Below are positions 4,655-43,550 of a stretch of 46,077 bases of DNA, one piece after another. The notes under the pieces are model-generated. The model was given only the letters and a program-made list of their open reading frames with translations, was not told the DNA's origin and did not search any database. Each line of letters opens with the position of its first letter. Position 1 is the first letter of the stretch. The position numbers and the translations under genes are program-made. Where the stretch lies: assembly GCA_018814765.1 (NCBI GenBank), contig JAHIZJ010000099.1, positions 1-46,077 on the forward strand, in the 5' to 3' direction. The DNA comes from Patescibacteria group bacterium (GTDB lineage Bacteria; Patescibacteriota; Patescibacteriia; JAHIZJ01).

Positions 4655-5066
4655 TCCATTGATATAAATTTTCAATTATCAATGACCAATTTACAATGAA
4701 TTTTTAATCAACCAATTTTCAGGCTGAGATTCATAATTGATAACTAATCTTATATTGATTTGTAACCTGTAGTCCGTCATCCTAAATTCTTTGTCCCATG
4801 TATGTGCAAGAAACACTCTGATAAACATCGCCGAAAACGCATCCCGATATTCATAAGGAAATTGATCAGCGGCTACGAGATGATTAATTAACTCTGGCTT
4901 TGCCAGATCAAGCAATGCTTGACAATTACCCGATCAACCGATGTAGTTCGTAAGCAATGGGCCTGTATCTAGGGTCTGGCTCAAAGTAGAAATGTAGGAG
5001 TAGAACTAAGGATCATTAATGACAAAATAGCGAAATTCTGGTAGAATCAATAGTGAAGGACCGTGT

Positions 5067-5564: not shown

Positions 5565-6320
5565 ATGATTACTTTCACAGCCCTACTTATTTTCATCGTT
5601 GGAATCAATATTGGAAGTTTTTTGAATGCTATTATCTGGCGCCTTCATACAAAAGAAGGCTTTTTACGTGGTCGCTCATATTGTCCTAAGTGCAAGACGT
5701 CAATCAGGGCAAGAGACCTTGTGCCGTTATTAAGCTATGCCTTATTAAGGGGTCGGTGTCGTGACTGCCAAAAACACATTGACTGGCAGTATCCTCTGGT
5801 TGAGCTTATCACCGGAGTCCTTTTTGTAATCACTTATTTAAAATTTTCCTTAAGCGAAGAATTTATTGTCTACGCTATCTATGTTTCCTTTTTAATCGTA
5901 GTGTTCGTTTTTGACCTCAGACATTATTTGATACTTGATCGGGTTATGCTTCCGGCCGGGATTGTGGCGTTGTTTGGCAGTTTAATTTTGGGCGTTGGAT
6001 TTTTCAATATACTCATTGGCATAATAATTGGCGGTGGTTTCTTCTTTTTGCAATACGTCTTATCACGAGGCAAATGGATTGGCGGAGGTGATATAAGACT
6101 GGGCCTTGTGATGGGCTTGATGCTGGGCTGGGAAAAGTTGTTGGCTGCCTTATTTGTGAGCTATCTAATCGGTTCGGTTGCCGGGATTTCATTGGTGCTA
6201 TGGAAACAAAAAAAATGGCAGAGTCGTTTGCCTTTTGGAGTATTTTTAACCACAGCCACATTTGTCACCCTAGTTTGGGGAGAAGTTTTGATTAATTGGT
6301 ATTTGGATCTAGTGGGGTAA
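5565..6320 (+). CDS. pilD: Prepilin peptidase (A24 family, PilD-like)
   Basis: Has the Cys-rich box CPKCKTSIRARDLVPLLSY...GRCRDCQKHIDWQYPLVEL, multiple TM helices and a GGGDIRLG motif, within a pilus-locus context. Confidence 0.9.
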   Translation: MITFTALLIFIVGINIGSFLNAIIWRLHTKEGFLRGRSYCPKCKTSIRARDLVPLLSYALLRGRCRDCQKHIDWQYPLVELITGVLFVITYLKFSLSEEFIVYAIYVSFLIVVFVFDLRHYLILDRVMLPAGIVALFGSLILGVGFFNILIGIIIGGGFFFLQYVLSRGKWIGGGDIRLGLVMGLMLGWEKLLAALFVSYLIGSVAGISLVLWKQKKWQSRLPFGVFLTTATFVTLVWGEVLINWYLDLVG

Positions 6321-6326
6321 ATATTT

Positions 6327-6938
6327 ATGAGAATCGACAAAGGCTATACGTTAATTGAGTTGTTAGTAACTATTTCAATATTTATTATTATTTCCACTGT
6401 TGGGTTGGTATCATTTCTACGACACCGCCAAGCGACCGATCTGGATAGTAGCGTATCTGAGCTGTCCAGCAATATCAGAAAAGTACAGGGCTATACACGT
6501 TCAGGTAGGGGTGAAGGCGGTCTTCATCCACGTGCTTATGGTGTGAGTATTGATCTTGATACCAATGACTCTTATATTTTATATGCTGACGCTGACGAAT
6601 TACCTGGTTTTGATCCGAGCACATACTGTTATGCTTGTTATGGGGAGGCAGATGTTCTCATTGATGATTATAGTCTGCTTAATAATACAACCCTGGATGC
6701 TATCAATATTACTGGACTTGCAACGATAGCGGATATTACAAAAGTTTATCTTGTTTTTATTGTTCCAACATCTGAACTAAAAATAGTATATGAGGACCCA
6801 GACGCTGGTGGTTTTGTTTCTTATGAAGTACCGGGAGAAAAAGAGGTCAGAATCACCGTTAAACATCTGAAGTCTGAAGACACAAAGACAGTAAAAGTTA
6901 CTGGTGGGGCTTTTGGTGGCGTAACAGTTGAAGAATAA
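6327..6938 (+). CDS. Minor pilin / pseudopilin-like protein
   Basis: MRIDKG|YTLIELLVTISIFIIIS is a class III signal peptide. Confidence 0.75.
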   Translation: MRIDKGYTLIELLVTISIFIIISTVGLVSFLRHRQATDLDSSVSELSSNIRKVQGYTRSGRGEGGLHPRAYGVSIDLDTNDSYILYADADELPGFDPSTYCYACYGEADVLIDDYSLLNNTTLDAINITGLATIADITKVYLVFIVPTSELKIVYEDPDAGGFVSYEVPGEKEVRITVKHLKSEDTKTVKVTGGAFGGVTVEE

Positions 6939-7644
6939 TATTATGAGACACAAGAAGAATCAAAAAGGCATTACTATACTGGAAACAATTATCGCAATCT
7001 TTGTAATTATGGTTGGTATTACCTCTGCGGTTGTGCTAATAATTGCCAGTACATCAGCTGCCAGAAAGACTAAAAATGAACTAATCGCGTCAAATCTGGC
7101 ACGTGAAACTATCGAAGTGATACGCAATAAACGCGATTCAAATTGGCTAAAGATTGAATCTGGTGAATTAGCCAGCAGTATGTGGGATGACGGATTGGGT
7201 GATTATATTAATAATTATTATGATGGAATTTATCACTTTGATGACGAAGGAATCGGTCCGGATGATCCAGCATTCGGTTGGACCTTTTTCTATGAAGATG
7301 ATTACGACATTGATGATCTAAATGATTTACGACCCCAGATTTATTATCATGACGATTCTGGAGCTAAACTTTACAATCAGTATGATGGAGCTATATTTTT
7401 ACCACCAGCCGGACAGAATACAATATTTAGAAGAGTTTTTGAGACAAATCCGATTTGCTATGACGAGACTGTAGTCCCACAAGAAATGATTGCTACCACA
7501 GAGTCTGGAGATGATTGTGACAGCCTACCTGATAATAGGAAAAAGATTGGCATTCAAGTTGTTGTTCATGTTCACTGGCGTGATGTAGGGAACAATAAAA
7601 CGTTTGAACTGATTCAAGAAGACCGTTTATATAATTGGAAATAA
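6928..7644 (+). CDS. Minor pilin / pseudopilin-like protein
   Basis: ...KKNQKG|ITILETIIAIFVIMVGI is a class III signal. The start could instead be the Met at 6943. Confidence 0.7.
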   Translation: MKNNIMRHKKNQKGITILETIIAIFVIMVGITSAVVLIIASTSAARKTKNELIASNLARETIEVIRNKRDSNWLKIESGELASSMWDDGLGDYINNYYDGIYHFDDEGIGPDDPAFGWTFFYEDDYDIDDLNDLRPQIYYHDDSGAKLYNQYDGAIFLPPAGQNTIFRRVFETNPICYDETVVPQEMIATTESGDDCDSLPDNRKKIGIQVVVHVHWRDVGNNKTFELIQEDRLYNWK

Positions 7645-39901: not shown

Positions 39902-40399
39902 TTACTCCTTTTGTTCGTAATAGAGTCTTTCAATTTCTTTCAGGTCTTCAACAGGTTCAGTATCGTAGGTGGCTTCCAGCAGCTCACCCTTATCCTTATC
40001 TTCCATAACAATATTCCATCTGCCTACCTGATCATTATAGCGACACTCGGGAAAGAAGACATGATGATGCCAGGAAATTTTTTTGGAGTTCATGTCTTCA
40101 GCTCGAGCGACCATCTTCTTAATATTGGGATGCTGGGGAGGACCCGCTTTGTCGGATTGTTTTAATATCTTTTCACCGTGTAGGAGCTGAACAAGCTTTT
40201 TTCCAATGGCAAGTTGACGTTTGTCAGTATAGACAAAAAAACTCTCATCATCTGAAGTATTTTCCAGAACCAGCGAGTGCTTATCATTACTATCATTAAA
40301 CAAACAGTCCGGAGTGAGCATATGAAAATGCCACCTTTTTTCGGCTGTTTGCCACTCTTTGGCTTTAGTTAGTACTTCTTTTAAATCGATTTCTTCCAT
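39902..40399 (-). CDS. Hypothetical protein with a tandem W-H-x-H...P-[DE]-C-x-x-N repeat
   Basis: RWHFHMLTPDCLFNDSNDKHSLVLEN and SWHHHVFFPECRYNDQVGRWNIVMED are two copies of one module. No family was recognised. Confidence 0.6.
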   Translation of the reverse strand: MEEIDLKEVLTKAKEWQTAEKRWHFHMLTPDCLFNDSNDKHSLVLENTSDDESFFVYTDKRQLAIGKKLVQLLHGEKILKQSDKAGPPQHPNIKKMVARAEDMNSKKISWHHHVFFPECRYNDQVGRWNIVMEDKDKGELLEATYDTEPVEDLKEIERLYYEQKE

Positions 40400-40439
40400 A
40401 CATTTATGATGACGCAGATTAATAAGTTAGTCAAATAAA
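40366..40439 (-). repeat. Direct repeat copy 1 (start codon, first codons and upstream region of gene 39902-40399)
   Basis: 40385-40439 is identical over 55 nt to 41087-41141. Weaker similarity extends to 40366. Confidence 0.8.
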
Positions 40440-40483: not shown

Positions 40484-40975
40484 CTAATTAGGCACTGTTA
40501 AAACAGTCTTGTCGGCACCATTAATGTCCAATGCTTTTATAACTTCAACAGCCCAGCCAATATCACAAGGCCCTACAGTTAGATCCTGGGTATTGATAGG
40601 TTCTTTTGATGTTGCTGCATACTCTTTGTAAATAACATGAGATTTGAAAGTATGGGCTTGGAGGCAAACAAAACTGCCCGGTTTGATTACAACATTTTCG
40701 ATAAATTCTACTGTATATATACCTCCGTCTTCACGGTTGAAGGTTGCGGTTTCGCCAGGTTGCAAGGTTGCTAACGACCCTTGATTAAAGTAGTTGTCTG
40801 TTTCAATTGCGTTAACAATTTTTGTAGTCAAGAGCGAAAAACTTGACACATTGTCTTTTCCGGATACGATTGATAGAGCAAAAAAACCTGCAGCTGAAAC
40901 TGCAAATACTCCAAGAATCACCGTTAAAGTAGTGATTGTTTTTGTTTTTTGTTTCGTAGAAATTTTCTGTTCCAT
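40484..40975 (-). CDS. Hypothetical membrane-anchored / secreted protein
   Basis: N-terminal TM segment TLTVILGVFAVSAAGFFALSIV. The gene is bracketed by the 55-nt direct repeats. Confidence 0.5.
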   Translation of the reverse strand: MEQKISTKQKTKTITTLTVILGVFAVSAAGFFALSIVSGKDNVSSFSLLTTKIVNAIETDNYFNQGSLATLQPGETATFNREDGGIYTVEFIENVVIKPGSFVCLQAHTFKSHVIYKEYAATSKEPINTQDLTVGPCDIGWAVEVIKALDINGADKTVLTVPN

Positions 40976-41059: not shown

Positions 41060-41141
41060 TCTTTGGCTTTGTTTAGCACTTTTTAGATCGATTTCTTCCA
41101 TACATTTATGATGACGCAGATTAATAAGTTAGTCAAATAAA
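41060..41141 (-). repeat. Direct repeat copy 2, carrying a truncated 5' gene fragment (MEEIDLK...)
   Basis: 41087-41141 is identical to 40385-40439. The minus strand reads ATGGAAGAAATCGATCTAAAA... and then diverges and decays. Confidence 0.75.
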
Positions 41142-41146
41142 TCAAT

Positions 41147-41413
41147 TTATTTTGCAATCGATAAATCCTCTCTAAGGATATATTTCAAAGTTGTTTTACC
41201 TTTATTAGTTTTAAAATATCGCTCACGACGAAGTGTATCAAACTTTGATCGATGGGCTTCAAAATAAATTAATTCAAATGGACGCCTTTTGGATGTCGAG
41301 ATGTTTTCACCACGATTATGTTGAGAAACGCGTCTTTCTATGTTTCTCGTATAACCAATGTAAAATTTGCCATCTTTTATACTTCTTAGAATATAAACAA
41401 AATGCCAGGTCAT
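41147..41413 (-). CDS. GIY-YIG nuclease-domain protein (small, stand-alone)
   Basis: WHFVYILRSIKDGKFYIGYTRNIERRVSQHN...YFE...REKYF-like RERYFK. Confidence 0.85.
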   Translation of the reverse strand: MTWHFVYILRSIKDGKFYIGYTRNIERRVSQHNRGENISTSKRRPFELIYFEAHRSKFDTLRRERYFKTNKGKTTLKYILREDLSIAK

Positions 41414-41447: not shown

Positions 41448-41545
41448 GTAGTGAACCACTCGCTTTGCTTGGGTTCACTACATGAACCACTCACTTTATT
41501 TGATATGGCTGCACCATGAACTCGAACGAAGTGAGTAGTTCATGG
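41448..41545. repeat. Cluster of long palindromic hairpins sharing a TGAACCACTC core
   Basis: GTAGTGAACC (41448-41457) pairs with GGTTCACTAC (41472-41481). CATGAACCACTCACTT (41481-41496) pairs with AAGTGAGTAGTTCATG (41529-41544). CCATGAACT (41514-41522) pairs with AGTTCATGG (41537-41545). Confidence 0.6.
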
Positions 41546-41619
41546 TGGGAGCAGGAGGATTCGAACCTCCGACCGTCTGCTTAAAAGGCAGCTGCTCTAC
41601 CTAACTGAGCTATACTCCC
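41543..41619 (-). tRNA. tRNA-Lys (anticodon UUU), CCA encoded
   Basis: Hand-folded on the minus strand: GGGAGTA|TA|GCTC-AGTTAGGTA-GAGC|A|GCTGC-CTTTTAA-GCAGA|CGGTC|GGAGG-TTCGAAT-CCTCC|TGCTCCC|A|CCA. Confidence 0.9.
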
Positions 41620-41679
41620 ATGTTGTTACGTTGTGTACTTATTTAGTAAAGAGGGTTAAGTAAACCTTTTTAACTGAGC

Positions 41680-41759
41680 CCCGACGAGATCGCTCCGCGA
41701 TCTGTCGGGATCCCGATTGGTCTCGAGCGAAGTCGAGAGGCCACTTCGGGGCATCGGGA
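41680..41759. repeat. GC-rich double hairpin (REP-like)
   Basis: Hairpin 1: 41680-41692 pairs with 41698-41709 (12 bp, one bulge). Hairpin 2: TCCCGAT (41711-41717) pairs with ATCGGGA (41753-41759) and encloses CTCGA-GCGAAG-TCGAG. It shares the 12-mer GAGCGAAGTCGA with 42834-42845. Confidence 0.5.
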
Positions 41760-41816
41760 CTATACTCCTGACATAACTTTAACAATATTAACAGGCTTTT
41801 ATGGTTTTAGCAAGGC

Positions 41817-41845
41817 TTGACATATTTCAATAAACATGATATTCT
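41817..41845 (+). promoter_or_regulatory. Sigma70-like promoter upstream of the DGR target gene
   Basis: TTGACA (41817-41822), 17-nt spacer ending in TGA (extended -10-like), TATTCT (41840-41845). Confidence 0.4.
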
Positions 41846-41883
41846 ACCATGTCTGTACTTTACATGGATATATTTACTTGCAT

Positions 41884-41966
41884 TGTGGCCATAGCTAAAA
41901 GTAACTGGAAACCACCCTGAGCATTAGCGAAGGGCCTTTCGGTAATTTCTAGCTATGGCTACCACA
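41884..41966 (+). promoter_or_regulatory. Long stem-loop in the 5' leader of the DGR target gene
   Basis: TGTGGCCATAGCT (41884-41896) pairs with AGCTATGGCTACCACA (41951-41966): 13 bp with a 3-nt bulge. The 54-nt interior contains a CGAAG-GGCC-TTTCG hairpin. It ends 50 nt before the ATG. Confidence 0.45.
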
Positions 41967-42015
41967 GACGGTGATAGCCCGATAGCGATACTCCAAACTA
42001 GAGGAGGATGACGCC

Positions 42016-42678
42016 ATGTCGAAAGATGTGTCCCCATCCGAAGTAACCATCACGAAAGGCCAGTGTTGCAAGCTCATGGATGTGGGCGCGGACGCGCTGG
42101 TCAAGAGCGGCCTGCCCAGCAAGGAGACCCAGGACGTGATCGAAGAGGAGGGCGCGGAAATTGCCAAAGTCCTGGTCGCGGATGTCCGCCGCAGAGTTGA
42201 GGCACGCCTGCGTGCCATCGAACCCCACGTTCTGGAACGTCTGCCTTTCGACCCCGAATCCTTCTCGGGCAAGGGGTGGGAGGTTGACGAGCGTGTCGGC
42301 AACCGCACCGGAGGAAACCTCGACGCGGGACAGATTGTCCGCATGGACTACCTGCGTGAGGGCGAGACCTACATCACCGGAGATGAACGTCTCCATCGTA
42401 TCAAGGAAGCACCCGGAGACATCCAGCTCGACGCCGAGGACTTCCTTGCCTTGTGGCAGGAGCAGGGCCACGCCACCCTCCGGTGGCTGTACGACACTAA
42501 GGGTATCACCTGGCTGTCGTTTTGGGGTACGGTTCTCCGCGACTCAGGCAGCCGCGGCGTCCTCTGCCTCTCTCGCGATGACGGCGGTTCCTGGGACTGG
42601 GACTACCGCTGGCTCGGCAATGACTGGGTCTACTACTACCCGGCGGGTGTCCTCGCAAGTAACCCCCGCACCGAATAG
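42016..42678 (+). CDS. DGR target (variable) protein, 220 aa, no signal peptide, GC-rich
   Basis: GAGGAGGA RBS 7 nt upstream of the ATG. The C-terminus GVLCLSRDDGGSWDWDYRWLGNDWVYYYPAGVLASNPRTE carries the variable repeat. Chosen over the overlapping GC-artefact ORFs. Confidence 0.75.
   Translation: MSKDVSPSEVTITKGQCCKLMDVGADALVKSGLPSKETQDVIEEEGAEIAKVLVADVRRRVEARLRAIEPHVLERLPFDPESFSGKGWEVDERVGNRTGGNLDAGQIVRMDYLREGETYITGDERLHRIKEAPGDIQLDAEDFLALWQEQGHATLRWLYDTKGITWLSFWGTVLRDSGSRGVLCLSRDDGGSWDWDYRWLGNDWVYYYPAGVLASNPRTE
42592..42658 (+). repeat. DGR variable repeat (VR)
   Basis: 67 nt, in frame (codons 193-215). 58 of 67 positions are identical to 43176-43242, and all 9 differences lie opposite adenines of the other copy. 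Confidence 0.8.
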
Positions 42679-42686
42679 GTGCGGGG
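42664..42686 (+). promoter_or_regulatory. GC-rich hairpin immediately 3' of the VR (candidate DGR target-recognition hairpin)
   Basis: CCCCGCACC (42664-42672) pairs with GGTGCGGGG (42678-42686), loop GAATA. It spans the TAG stop codon. No T-run follows. It is absent next to the TR. Confidence 0.5.
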
Positions 42687-42866
42687 CAGGTAGTTCTTGG
42701 AACTTGACCTCCTAGACCTCTTTGGTCTTTGGATTCAGTTCTTAGAGCTTTGTCCGCTCGGCCCGCGCTGGTTTCTACACTGGCGCGGGTCATTTCTTTT
42801 TGACGCGAAGCGTCATGTCGAGCGACCTGTGGTGAGCGAAGTCGAACCAAGTCGAGACATCTCATT

Positions 42867-42895
42867 TTGCTTTTGGTGTTTGTTTTGGATATACT
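42867..42895 (+). promoter_or_regulatory. Sigma70-like promoter upstream of the template repeat
   Basis: TTGCTT (42867-42872), 17-nt spacer, TATACT (42890-42895). Confidence 0.4.
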
Positions 42896-43175
42896 AACTT
42901 TGGTACTAGGTTAATCAGTCAGCGACTATTGTTGCTGACGACCGAATCCAGTGACCATATTACTCAGAGTACCGCAGGCCACGGTTTGCGGCAGCGTGGA
43001 ATACGGCGCTCAAAAAACGATGTTACTTGGTATAGCGCGTTAAGGCATTTAATATGCCGGATACGATACAGCCCCAAGAGTACTCAAAGGGCAGTGGCAT
43101 GGACGGCACGCTGTACAGAACCGCAACGCTGATGGCAATATCAACGTCCGTTACCTCAACTGGGATGATGACAGG

Positions 43176-43242
43176 TGGAACTGGAACTACAACTGGCTCG
43201 ACAATGACTGGAACTACAACAACCCGGCGGGTGTCCTCGCAA
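43176..43242 (+). repeat. DGR template repeat (TR) core; the TR-like Asn-codon-rich stretch may extend 5' to about 43074
   Basis: Noncoding: in-frame stops at 43041 and 43050, and no ATG in that frame. It is AAC/AAT-rich (reads WNWNYNWLDNDWNYNNPAGVLA). All 47 non-A positions are identical to the VR. Confidence 0.8.
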
Positions 43243-43254
43243 ATTACCTCGTTT

Positions 43255-43283
43255 CTCTCCCTTGTTTGGGAGAGTTTTGTTTT
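43255..43283 (+). terminator. Terminator-like hairpin directly after the TR
   Basis: CTCTCCC (43255-43261) pairs with GGGAGAG (43268-43274), followed by TTTTGTTTT. Confidence 0.45.
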
Positions 43284-43301
43284 GTAAGTTGGCCGTTCTA
43301 G

Positions 43302-43550
43302 CCTCCTACTAATAAGGTATCTATTAAAACCGTGGCTTCGGGAGTGGATTTTCTGGGCTGGGTGCATTTTCCTAACCATCGGGTATTGAGGACTGTTGCA
43401 AAACGTAGGATGTTAAAGAATCTTGATATCAAACAAGGTGAGAACGCAACAGCACAGTCGTATATTGGTCTGTTACAGCACGGGAATACTAAGAAGCTAT
43501 CCCAACGAGTATCTGATGTGTCAGGAAATAGCGAGCAGTACAAAAATTGA
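43302..43550 (+). pseudogene. DGR-type reverse transcriptase, C-terminal fragment only (about 82 codons)
   Basis: PPTNKVSIKTVASGVDFLGWVHFPNHRVLRTVAKRRMLKNL...SYIGLLQHGNTKKL parallels the end of the Bordetella phage Brt (..SRGINFLGYRIWPTHKLLRKSSVKRAKRKV...SWSGHAQWADTHNL, recalled from memory). There is an in-frame TAG at 43299, no ATG, and no palm domain or YxDD motif anywhere upstream. Confidence 0.6.

Follow-up and report, generated by a model that had tools for sequence, protein, structure and literature searches.

Organization of the cassette and the target gene

The stretch of DNA analyzed in this study, hereafter the window, covers positions 1 to 46,077 of contig JAHIZJ010000099.1 of a Patescibacteria group bacterium. 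It contains a cassette island that spans about 41815-43550 and that comprises a target gene with a variable region (VR), a template repeat (TR) and remnants of the avd and reverse transcriptase (RT) genes of a diversity-generating retroelement (DGR; Table 1). The GC content of the target gene is 62%, as compared to 40% in the rest of the window, and in 10 of the 12 related loci that were checked the target likewise exceeds its flanks in GC content, by 3 to 20 points. The closest cassette is that of L009, to which nucleotide homology begins at 41815. It is 83% identical to ours at the nucleotide level from the promoter onward, and is located in a different context, with Fic and AEP-TOTE genes adjacent. 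Taken together, the contrast in GC content and the different context of the L009 cassette suggest horizontal movement of the cassette.

A tRNA-Lys(UUU) gene (41543-41619, minus strand) and a gene for a stand-alone GIY-YIG domain protein of 88 aa (41147-41413, minus strand) are located just upstream of the cassette. Integrases usually use the 3' end of tRNA genes. Integration at a tRNA 3' end was considered and rejected, since the island lies directly against the 5' side of the tRNA-Lys gene and is not flanked by an att-like repeat. Further upstream, a 61-nt direct repeat (40379-40439 and 41081-41141; 98% identical, 702 nt apart) flanks an ORF of 163 aa (40484-40975, minus strand) and overlaps the start of another ORF (39902-40399, minus strand). 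A short repeat with GAGCGAAGTCGA was found at 41725-41736 and 42834-42845 in the window, at 5836-5847 in L008 and at 1143-1154 in L011; it is positioned after the target gene in the window and in L008, and between the VR and the TR in L011.

The target protein belongs to a family of 1185 representative clusters, as identified in an exhaustive profile search, of which 640 were recovered at E ≤ 1e-10. Most proteins in the best 150 of the 1185 clusters are about 160-240 aa long, with conservation concentrated in residues ~70-217. Searches of Pfam (36 members), NCBIfam and the PDB (sequence and profile) gave no match to the family, and the target protein has no recognisable TM segment. In the AlphaFold model, which is confident (pLDDT 88.7, pTM 0.70), the C-terminal domain is predicted to consist of three beta-strands and three alpha-helices followed by five beta-strands, with the VR on the last strands. 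The initial annotation had suggested looking for a C-type-lectin (CLec) or FGE-like fold, and the best whole-domain Foldseek matches of the predicted structure were indeed to C-type lectin CRDs (1egg, 1egi and 3wbr) and to a BFVD entry named "C-type lectin protein". These matches are weak, however, with E-values of 0.5-7.5 that lend no statistical support, and the target-normalised TM scores for the three PDB CRDs were 0.34-0.37. The model is suggestive of a CLec fold in the C-terminal domain.

Across all nine loci compared, the translation start context AAGGAGGATGNCGCCATG hardly varies, even at a protein identity of about 50%. For the long stem-loop in the leader of the target gene, some compensatory changes were seen in four loci (including L008, L009 and L011), although the alignment is poor and the covariation tentative; for a consensus structure of the leader across nine loci, no alignment was obtained. 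At the other end of the gene, the stop codon (42676-42678) spans the loop-stem boundary of a GC-rich hairpin, the conservation of which is not obvious in the relatives. In the BPP-1 DGR, a hairpin or cruciform after the VR is required for homing, and by analogy the GC-rich hairpin may have a role in homing. The noncoding segment upstream of the TR presumably forms the 5' portion of the TR transcript. All loci compared have a hairpin immediately 3' of the TR, with TTTTGTTTT(T)G after it; this hairpin may act as a terminator of the TR RNA or as the analog of a spacer for Avd binding or priming. A scan of the region with Rfam gave nothing except the neighboring tRNA-Lys.

Table 1. Features of the cassette in the window, with coordinates, strand and supporting observations.
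Feature	Position	Strand	Observations
Sigma-70-like promoter candidate, TTGACA-17-TATTCT	41817-41845	+	Consensus scan only; upstream of target gene
Long stem-loop, target gene leader	41885-41962	+	Inverted repeat; MFE -54.7 kcal/mol for 41850-42015, z = -3.9
DGR target (variable protein) gene, 220 aa	42016-42678	+	N-terminal helical hairpin and C-terminal alpha/beta domain ending in VR (model)
5' part of family-length VR	42533-42591	+	Variable among orthologues; non-cognate to resident TR (13/38 non-A, indels); closer to L011/L016-type TRs
VR tract cognate to resident TR	42592-42658	+	9/20 A-site substitutions, 0/47 non-A
GC-rich hairpin, 9-bp stem, 5-nt loop	42664-42686	+	-12.6 kcal/mol, z = -4.6; begins 5 nt past end of VR/TR homology
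Terminator-like hairpin and T-rich tail	42760-42791	+	After target gene
Noncoding segment upstream of TR	43012-43116	+	68-81% nucleotide identity to same segment of intact DGR loci
Family-length TR	43117-43242	+	AAC-rich, no ORF listed in VR frame; only 43176-43242 cognate to VR
Post-TR hairpin, 7 bp, then TTTTGTTTTG	43255-43284	+	In all 7 loci compared, with compensatory changes
avd 3'-end remnant (~residues 114-124 of 129)	43280-43312	-	Protein match E = 1.2, syntenic position; DNA homology to intact loci ends 43306
Deletion junction	43306-43312		Left homology ends 43306 in five loci; right starts 43297-43326, most often 43312
RT C-terminal remnant, ~70 residues (L001 equivalent 259-328)	43311-43550	+	Open to natural stop; without YxDD and all upstream motifs

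The VR/TR pair and the mosaic template

Related loci were fetched from GTDB representative genomes by alignment of the target protein and were searched with the RT of L001, the accessory ORF of L001 and the target of the window. The homologues were almost all from Patescibacteria MAGs. The family layout, target(+)-TR(+)-avd(-)-RT(+), is intact in five loci (L001, L010, L011, L023 and L024), and L016 has the same layout with a broken RT gene. The best NCBIfam match to the accessory ORF of L001, which is about 129 aa long in the relatives, was DivGenRetAVD at E = 3.7e-16, below the curated cutoff. The VR/TR pairs of L001, L011, L016, L023 and L024 span 123-132 nt and contain 15-22 mismatches, all or nearly all of which are at TR adenines. 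We also searched for sister VRs and TRs with the shared 20-mer CCCGGCGGGTGTCCTCGCAA, which gave six matches in metagenomes, all to unrelated high-GC sequences without homology to the target or the RT, and none in viral contigs.

In the window, the VR tract aligns without gaps to the last part of the TR (43176-43242), with 58 of 67 positions identical. Re-alignment reproduced the coordinates and the identity given in the initial annotation, and the nine mismatches were recovered at exactly the positions listed there, all of them TR adenines (43179, 43185, 43191, 43192, 43201, 43212, 43213, 43218 and 43221), which are replaced in the VR by G, G, C, G, G, G, T, T and T, respectively. The VR thus differs at 9 of the 20 A sites and at none of the 47 non-A sites, and synonymous positions are identical. 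The hypergeometric probability that nine out of nine mismatches coincide with the 20 A among the 67 TR positions is 3.9e-6, which is lower than the value of about 2e-5 estimated previously. When every A of the TR was replaced by N, the resulting pattern matched only the VR and the TR in the window, with zero matches expected.

The amino acid changes from TR to VR, in which Asn codons are altered to D, D, R, V, Y and Y and an Asp codon to G, are as originally described, whereas the codon count needs to be corrected: among the 22 codons of the TR segment there are 6 AAC and 1 AAT, not 7 AAC and 1 AAT. It had also been stated that the TR cannot be translated in the frame of the VR. There is indeed no ORF listed in this frame, but the TR region is free of stops over 82 codons (43053-43298), and it is the absence of a start, rather than the presence of stops, that makes it untranslatable. 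The VR ends 20 nt before the stop of the 220-aa target ORF, and the two copies part ways right after ...CTCGCAA, which is followed by GTAACC in the VR and by ATTACC in the TR.

The adenine-only mismatch pattern is real, and the assignment of the VR/TR pair as the signature of a DGR is supported by the RT remnant that adjoins the TR and by the five related loci with A-specific mismatches. The alternative that the two copies arose by simple duplication or share a conserved protein motif, with mismatches that happen to fall on adenines and no retroelement involved, has nothing more in its favor than the small number of mismatches (nine), and is effectively refuted by the low probability of the pattern, the identical synonymous positions, the lack of a listed ORF for the TR in the VR frame, the RT remnant directly downstream of the TR and the recurrence of the same A-specific pattern in five related loci.

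On the 5' side, the perfect agreement at non-A positions breaks off at 42592/43176, a sharp boundary to which the initial annotation did not draw attention. Further upstream, VR and TR differ at 13 of 38 non-A positions and their alignment contains six gap columns, as compared to 0 of 47 non-A positions downstream; the pair is thus cognate over 67 nt of the family length of about 126 nt. Two types of TRs could be distinguished in a multiple alignment of the loci. The 5' half of the window TR is of the L001/L010 type (…VRYLNWDDDRW…), and its 3' tail, CCGGCGGGTGTCCTCGCAA, is similar to that of the L011 type. For the 5' half of the window VR (…RDDGGSW…), TRs of the L011/L016 type are a better match, with 8-10 mismatches at 43-44 non-A positions. 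The resident TR is a mosaic that is cognate to the target only over its last 67 nt, and recombination between templates is the likeliest cause.

A mismatch between neighbors was also seen in L010, which contains avd and a full RT gene and appears to be an intact DGR. Its TR does not match the adjacent target VR (740-960 versus 1300-1520), with many non-A mismatches and indels, and either the cognate VR must be located elsewhere or the template must have been swapped.

Loss of avd and of the RT core

Across the 46-kb window, similarity to RT is limited to 43311-43520, which corresponds to residues 259-328 of the 329-aa RT of L001. This part is contained in an open frame of 82 codons (43302-43550), the product of which, NKVSIKTVASGVDFLGWVHFPNHRVLRT..., matches the C-terminal end of RT and is homologous to the RTs of intact DGRs. 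The YxDD motif (YVDD at residues 223-226 in L001) lies upstream of the part that has been kept, and an intact DGR-type RT with YxDD is absent from the locus. An intact avd gene is also absent, with only about 11 C-terminal codons left, and searches with the RT and the accessory ORF of L001 detected no further RT or Avd in the 46-kb window.

Nucleotide homology to the five intact loci extends from about 43012 through the TR and the hairpin as far as 43306, and is found again from about 43312 onward, within the RT gene. In comparison to these relatives, 1.08-1.13 kb is missing, which corresponds to avd codons 1 to ~113 and RT codons 1-258. The collinearity indicates that a single clean deletion of about 1.1 kb took avd along with the fingers and palm of the RT. 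The deletion is probably recent, since there is no non-A change in the VR/TR pair, the RT remnant is still open and the target gene is intact.

Since the contigs of other runs end at about 42850 and the junction was found nowhere else, both the linkage of VR to TR and the deletion rest on one assembly. The exact 41-mer across the junction gave no matches in JGI metagenomes, and an antisense ORF that spans the junction was found only in the source contig and in no other assemblies. Contigs from three other runs (SRR2544004, SRR27458547 and SRR27458548) are 100% identical to the window over 41572-42856, the VR included, and stop at 42848-42856, short of the TR, in a short repeat that is also present at 41725, which indicates that the assembly graph branches between VR and TR. 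The deletion could thus be an assembly artefact or be present in only part of the population, with an intact DGR in the real genome, or the VR and the TR could have been joined artificially via the small repeat at ~42811-42864. We consider this very improbable, as 450 nt separate the junction from that repeat and no repeat is present at the junction itself, and as both of its sides are collinear with the intact relatives in the manner of a simple deletion. Furthermore, similar but non-identical truncations are present in other assemblies (L022, L002/L003), and the spacing of 584 nt between VR and TR is comparable to the 448-566 nt in the relatives.

In L022 (4160-5043), RT residues ~265-325 begin about 90 nt after the target and there is no TR, while L002 (5980-6363, identical to L003 777-1160) contains RT residues 197-325 only, with no target nearby. 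These RT truncations have different end points and are independent events, which indicates that decay is recurrent. Targets without RT were found in seven GTDB loci for which 2.9 kb or more of sequence downstream was available, and in L008 (the target-alone loci being L008, L012-L014, L017, L018, L020 and L021). Among the loci examined, the window is the only one in which the TR has been kept and the enzymes lost.

Direct repeats of 44 nt (4753-4796 and 5990-6033; 93% identical) surround the solitary target in L008, which is without TR or RT, and these may be a trace of the insertion or excision of a cassette. In L013, a tandem duplication of about 330 nt (6516-6839 and 6984-7305; 70% identity) starts in the 3' part of the target (6001-6645) and shows no A bias; it may represent a second, paralogous copy of the target.

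Past activity and relation to known DGRs

The closest orthologous targets are those of L009 and L008, with 80% and 74% amino acid identity, respectively. Their VRs differ from the window TR at 13-14 of the 20 A sites and at 4-5 of the 47 non-A sites, and the differences at A sites indicate that diversification from near-identical templates has happened across lineages. In intact members of the family, a TR RNA composed of the conserved leader, the AAC-rich template of about 126 nt and the 3' hairpin/U-tract is reverse-transcribed by an RT-Avd complex that misreads adenines, and the cDNA replaces the C-terminal VR of the small (~217 aa) target protein. The last homing events at this locus probably replaced the terminal 67 nt of the VR with sequence copied from the resident TR, or from a TR that donated its 3' half, with changes at 9 of the 20 adenine-templated positions (6 Asn codons and 1 Asp codon). 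The single deletion of about 1.1 kb that covers avd and RT codons 1-258 would have followed, leaving the VR frozen in its present state.

In the prototype DGR, bRT, Avd and the DGR RNA are described as necessary and sufficient for the synthesis of cDNA (PMC6182149). With avd and the RT core deleted, and with RT, Avd and DGR RNA all required in the prototype, the locus is not expected to be autonomous; since avd and RT codons 1-258 were taken by the deletion, it would be unable to diversify on its own and its VR would be frozen. We interpret the locus as the footprint of a DGR of the Patescibacteria type that has lost its enzymes, that is, as a recently decayed copy, with a probability of about 0.8. 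The identical VR in the contigs of the other runs is what a frozen VR would give, but these are consensus contigs and may hide minority variants. Also, the zero non-A differences and the intact TR with its conserved flanks, which agree with recent decay, would be expected as well if the module were still in use.

The TR/VR module could then still be active and serviced in trans by the RT-Avd of another DGR in the same genome, with the local loss tolerated and the TR serving as a satellite template. The agreement of VR and TR at 47 of 47 non-A positions and the conserved, intact TR leader and 3' hairpin fit such use, targets are often without a local RT (the seven GTDB loci and L008 mentioned above), one contig of 1.07 Mb contains two paralogous targets, and remote targets are recognised in the literature (PMC8144416). 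Against this, there is no RT or Avd within the 46-kb window and the VR is identical in four assemblies. Moreover, processive cDNA synthesis by the prototype is described as restricted to the cognate DGR RNA through a segment downstream of the TR (PMC6182149), and a foreign RT-Avd may for this reason not accept the TR RNA of the window. Overall, we regard continued activity in trans as unlikely, and prefer recent decay. The mosaic TR allows for a broader and equally doubtful scheme of DGR template swapping, by which the chimeric TR confines mutagenic homing to the 67-nt end of the VR and the RT-less module is a satellite template that is diversified in trans. If this were true, templates and targets would be re-paired modularly and would outlive their own enzymes in the streamlined genomes of the Patescibacteria.

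DGRs in the Patescibacteria/CPR were reportedly first described by Paul et al. in 2017. We compared the cassette to DGR clade 2 of Roux et al. 2021, which is cellular, restricted to the Patescibacteria/CPR and has small targets without recognisable domains or TM segments (PMC8144416). Shared with this clade are the Patescibacteria hosts, the small target with neither TM segment nor Pfam domain, the C-terminal VR with A-specific mismatches and, in the intact relatives, the presence of avd and RT. Unlike clade 2, the copy in the window has lost avd and the catalytic core of the RT, and the match between its TR and VR covers 67 of about 126 nt. The element fits DGR clade 2, an assignment that is based on host taxonomy and target properties rather than on RT phylogeny. 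It thus belongs to the already catalogued DGRs of the Patescibacteria and does not represent a new mechanism.

The similarities to the DGR of Bordetella phage BPP-1 (mtd-avd-TR-brt) include an invariant A-rich TR that templates adenine-specific changes in a C-terminal VR, the divergence of VR and TR right after their shared 3' end, a GC-rich hairpin after the VR and a structured noncoding segment after the TR, as described for the phage element (PMC6182149). The two differ in gene order and orientation, since the family has target-TR-avd(-)-RT(+), in which avd is located between TR and RT on the opposite strand, and the present element is cellular rather than phage-borne, with no matches in viral contigs. 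Furthermore, its target has no sequence relationship to Mtd, with no match among PDB sequences, and its enzymes have been deleted.

Remote or orphan targets and degenerate DGRs have been noted in surveys of DGRs. As in these, the target in the window has been kept without a functional local RT, but the window differs in that it retains a TR that is perfectly matched at non-A sites. The value of the locus is modest and consists of a dated snapshot of DGR decay, in which the enzymes are gone and the template, the target and the A-specific footprint are pristine. It is relevant to the frequency with which hypervariable proteins become fixed in reduced genomes and to the question of whether templates can be used in trans, and it would be missed by DGR finders that are centered on the RT.

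A split or naturally short RT was suggested by the homologues of the RT remnant, 126 in total, all of which are 67-142 aa long and most of which start with MNEFDQF...YADD. The idea was rejected, as L001 contains an uninterrupted RT ORF of 329 aa for which the database holds only a 126-aa call and an antisense ORF. Since the ORF in L001 is of full length, most of the short RT proteins can be attributed to artefacts of gene calling and indexing in GC-rich cassettes, with L002/L003 and L022 being truly truncated. In public annotations, spurious antisense ORFs cover the TR/RT region (43023-43379 in the window and 5290-5943 in L001, both on the minus strand), and RT genes are cut to about 126 aa from an internal Met, which results in many "short RT" entries in the protein databases. 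Gene callers thus mis-annotate GC-rich DGR cassettes, both by calling antisense ORFs and by truncating the RT genes.
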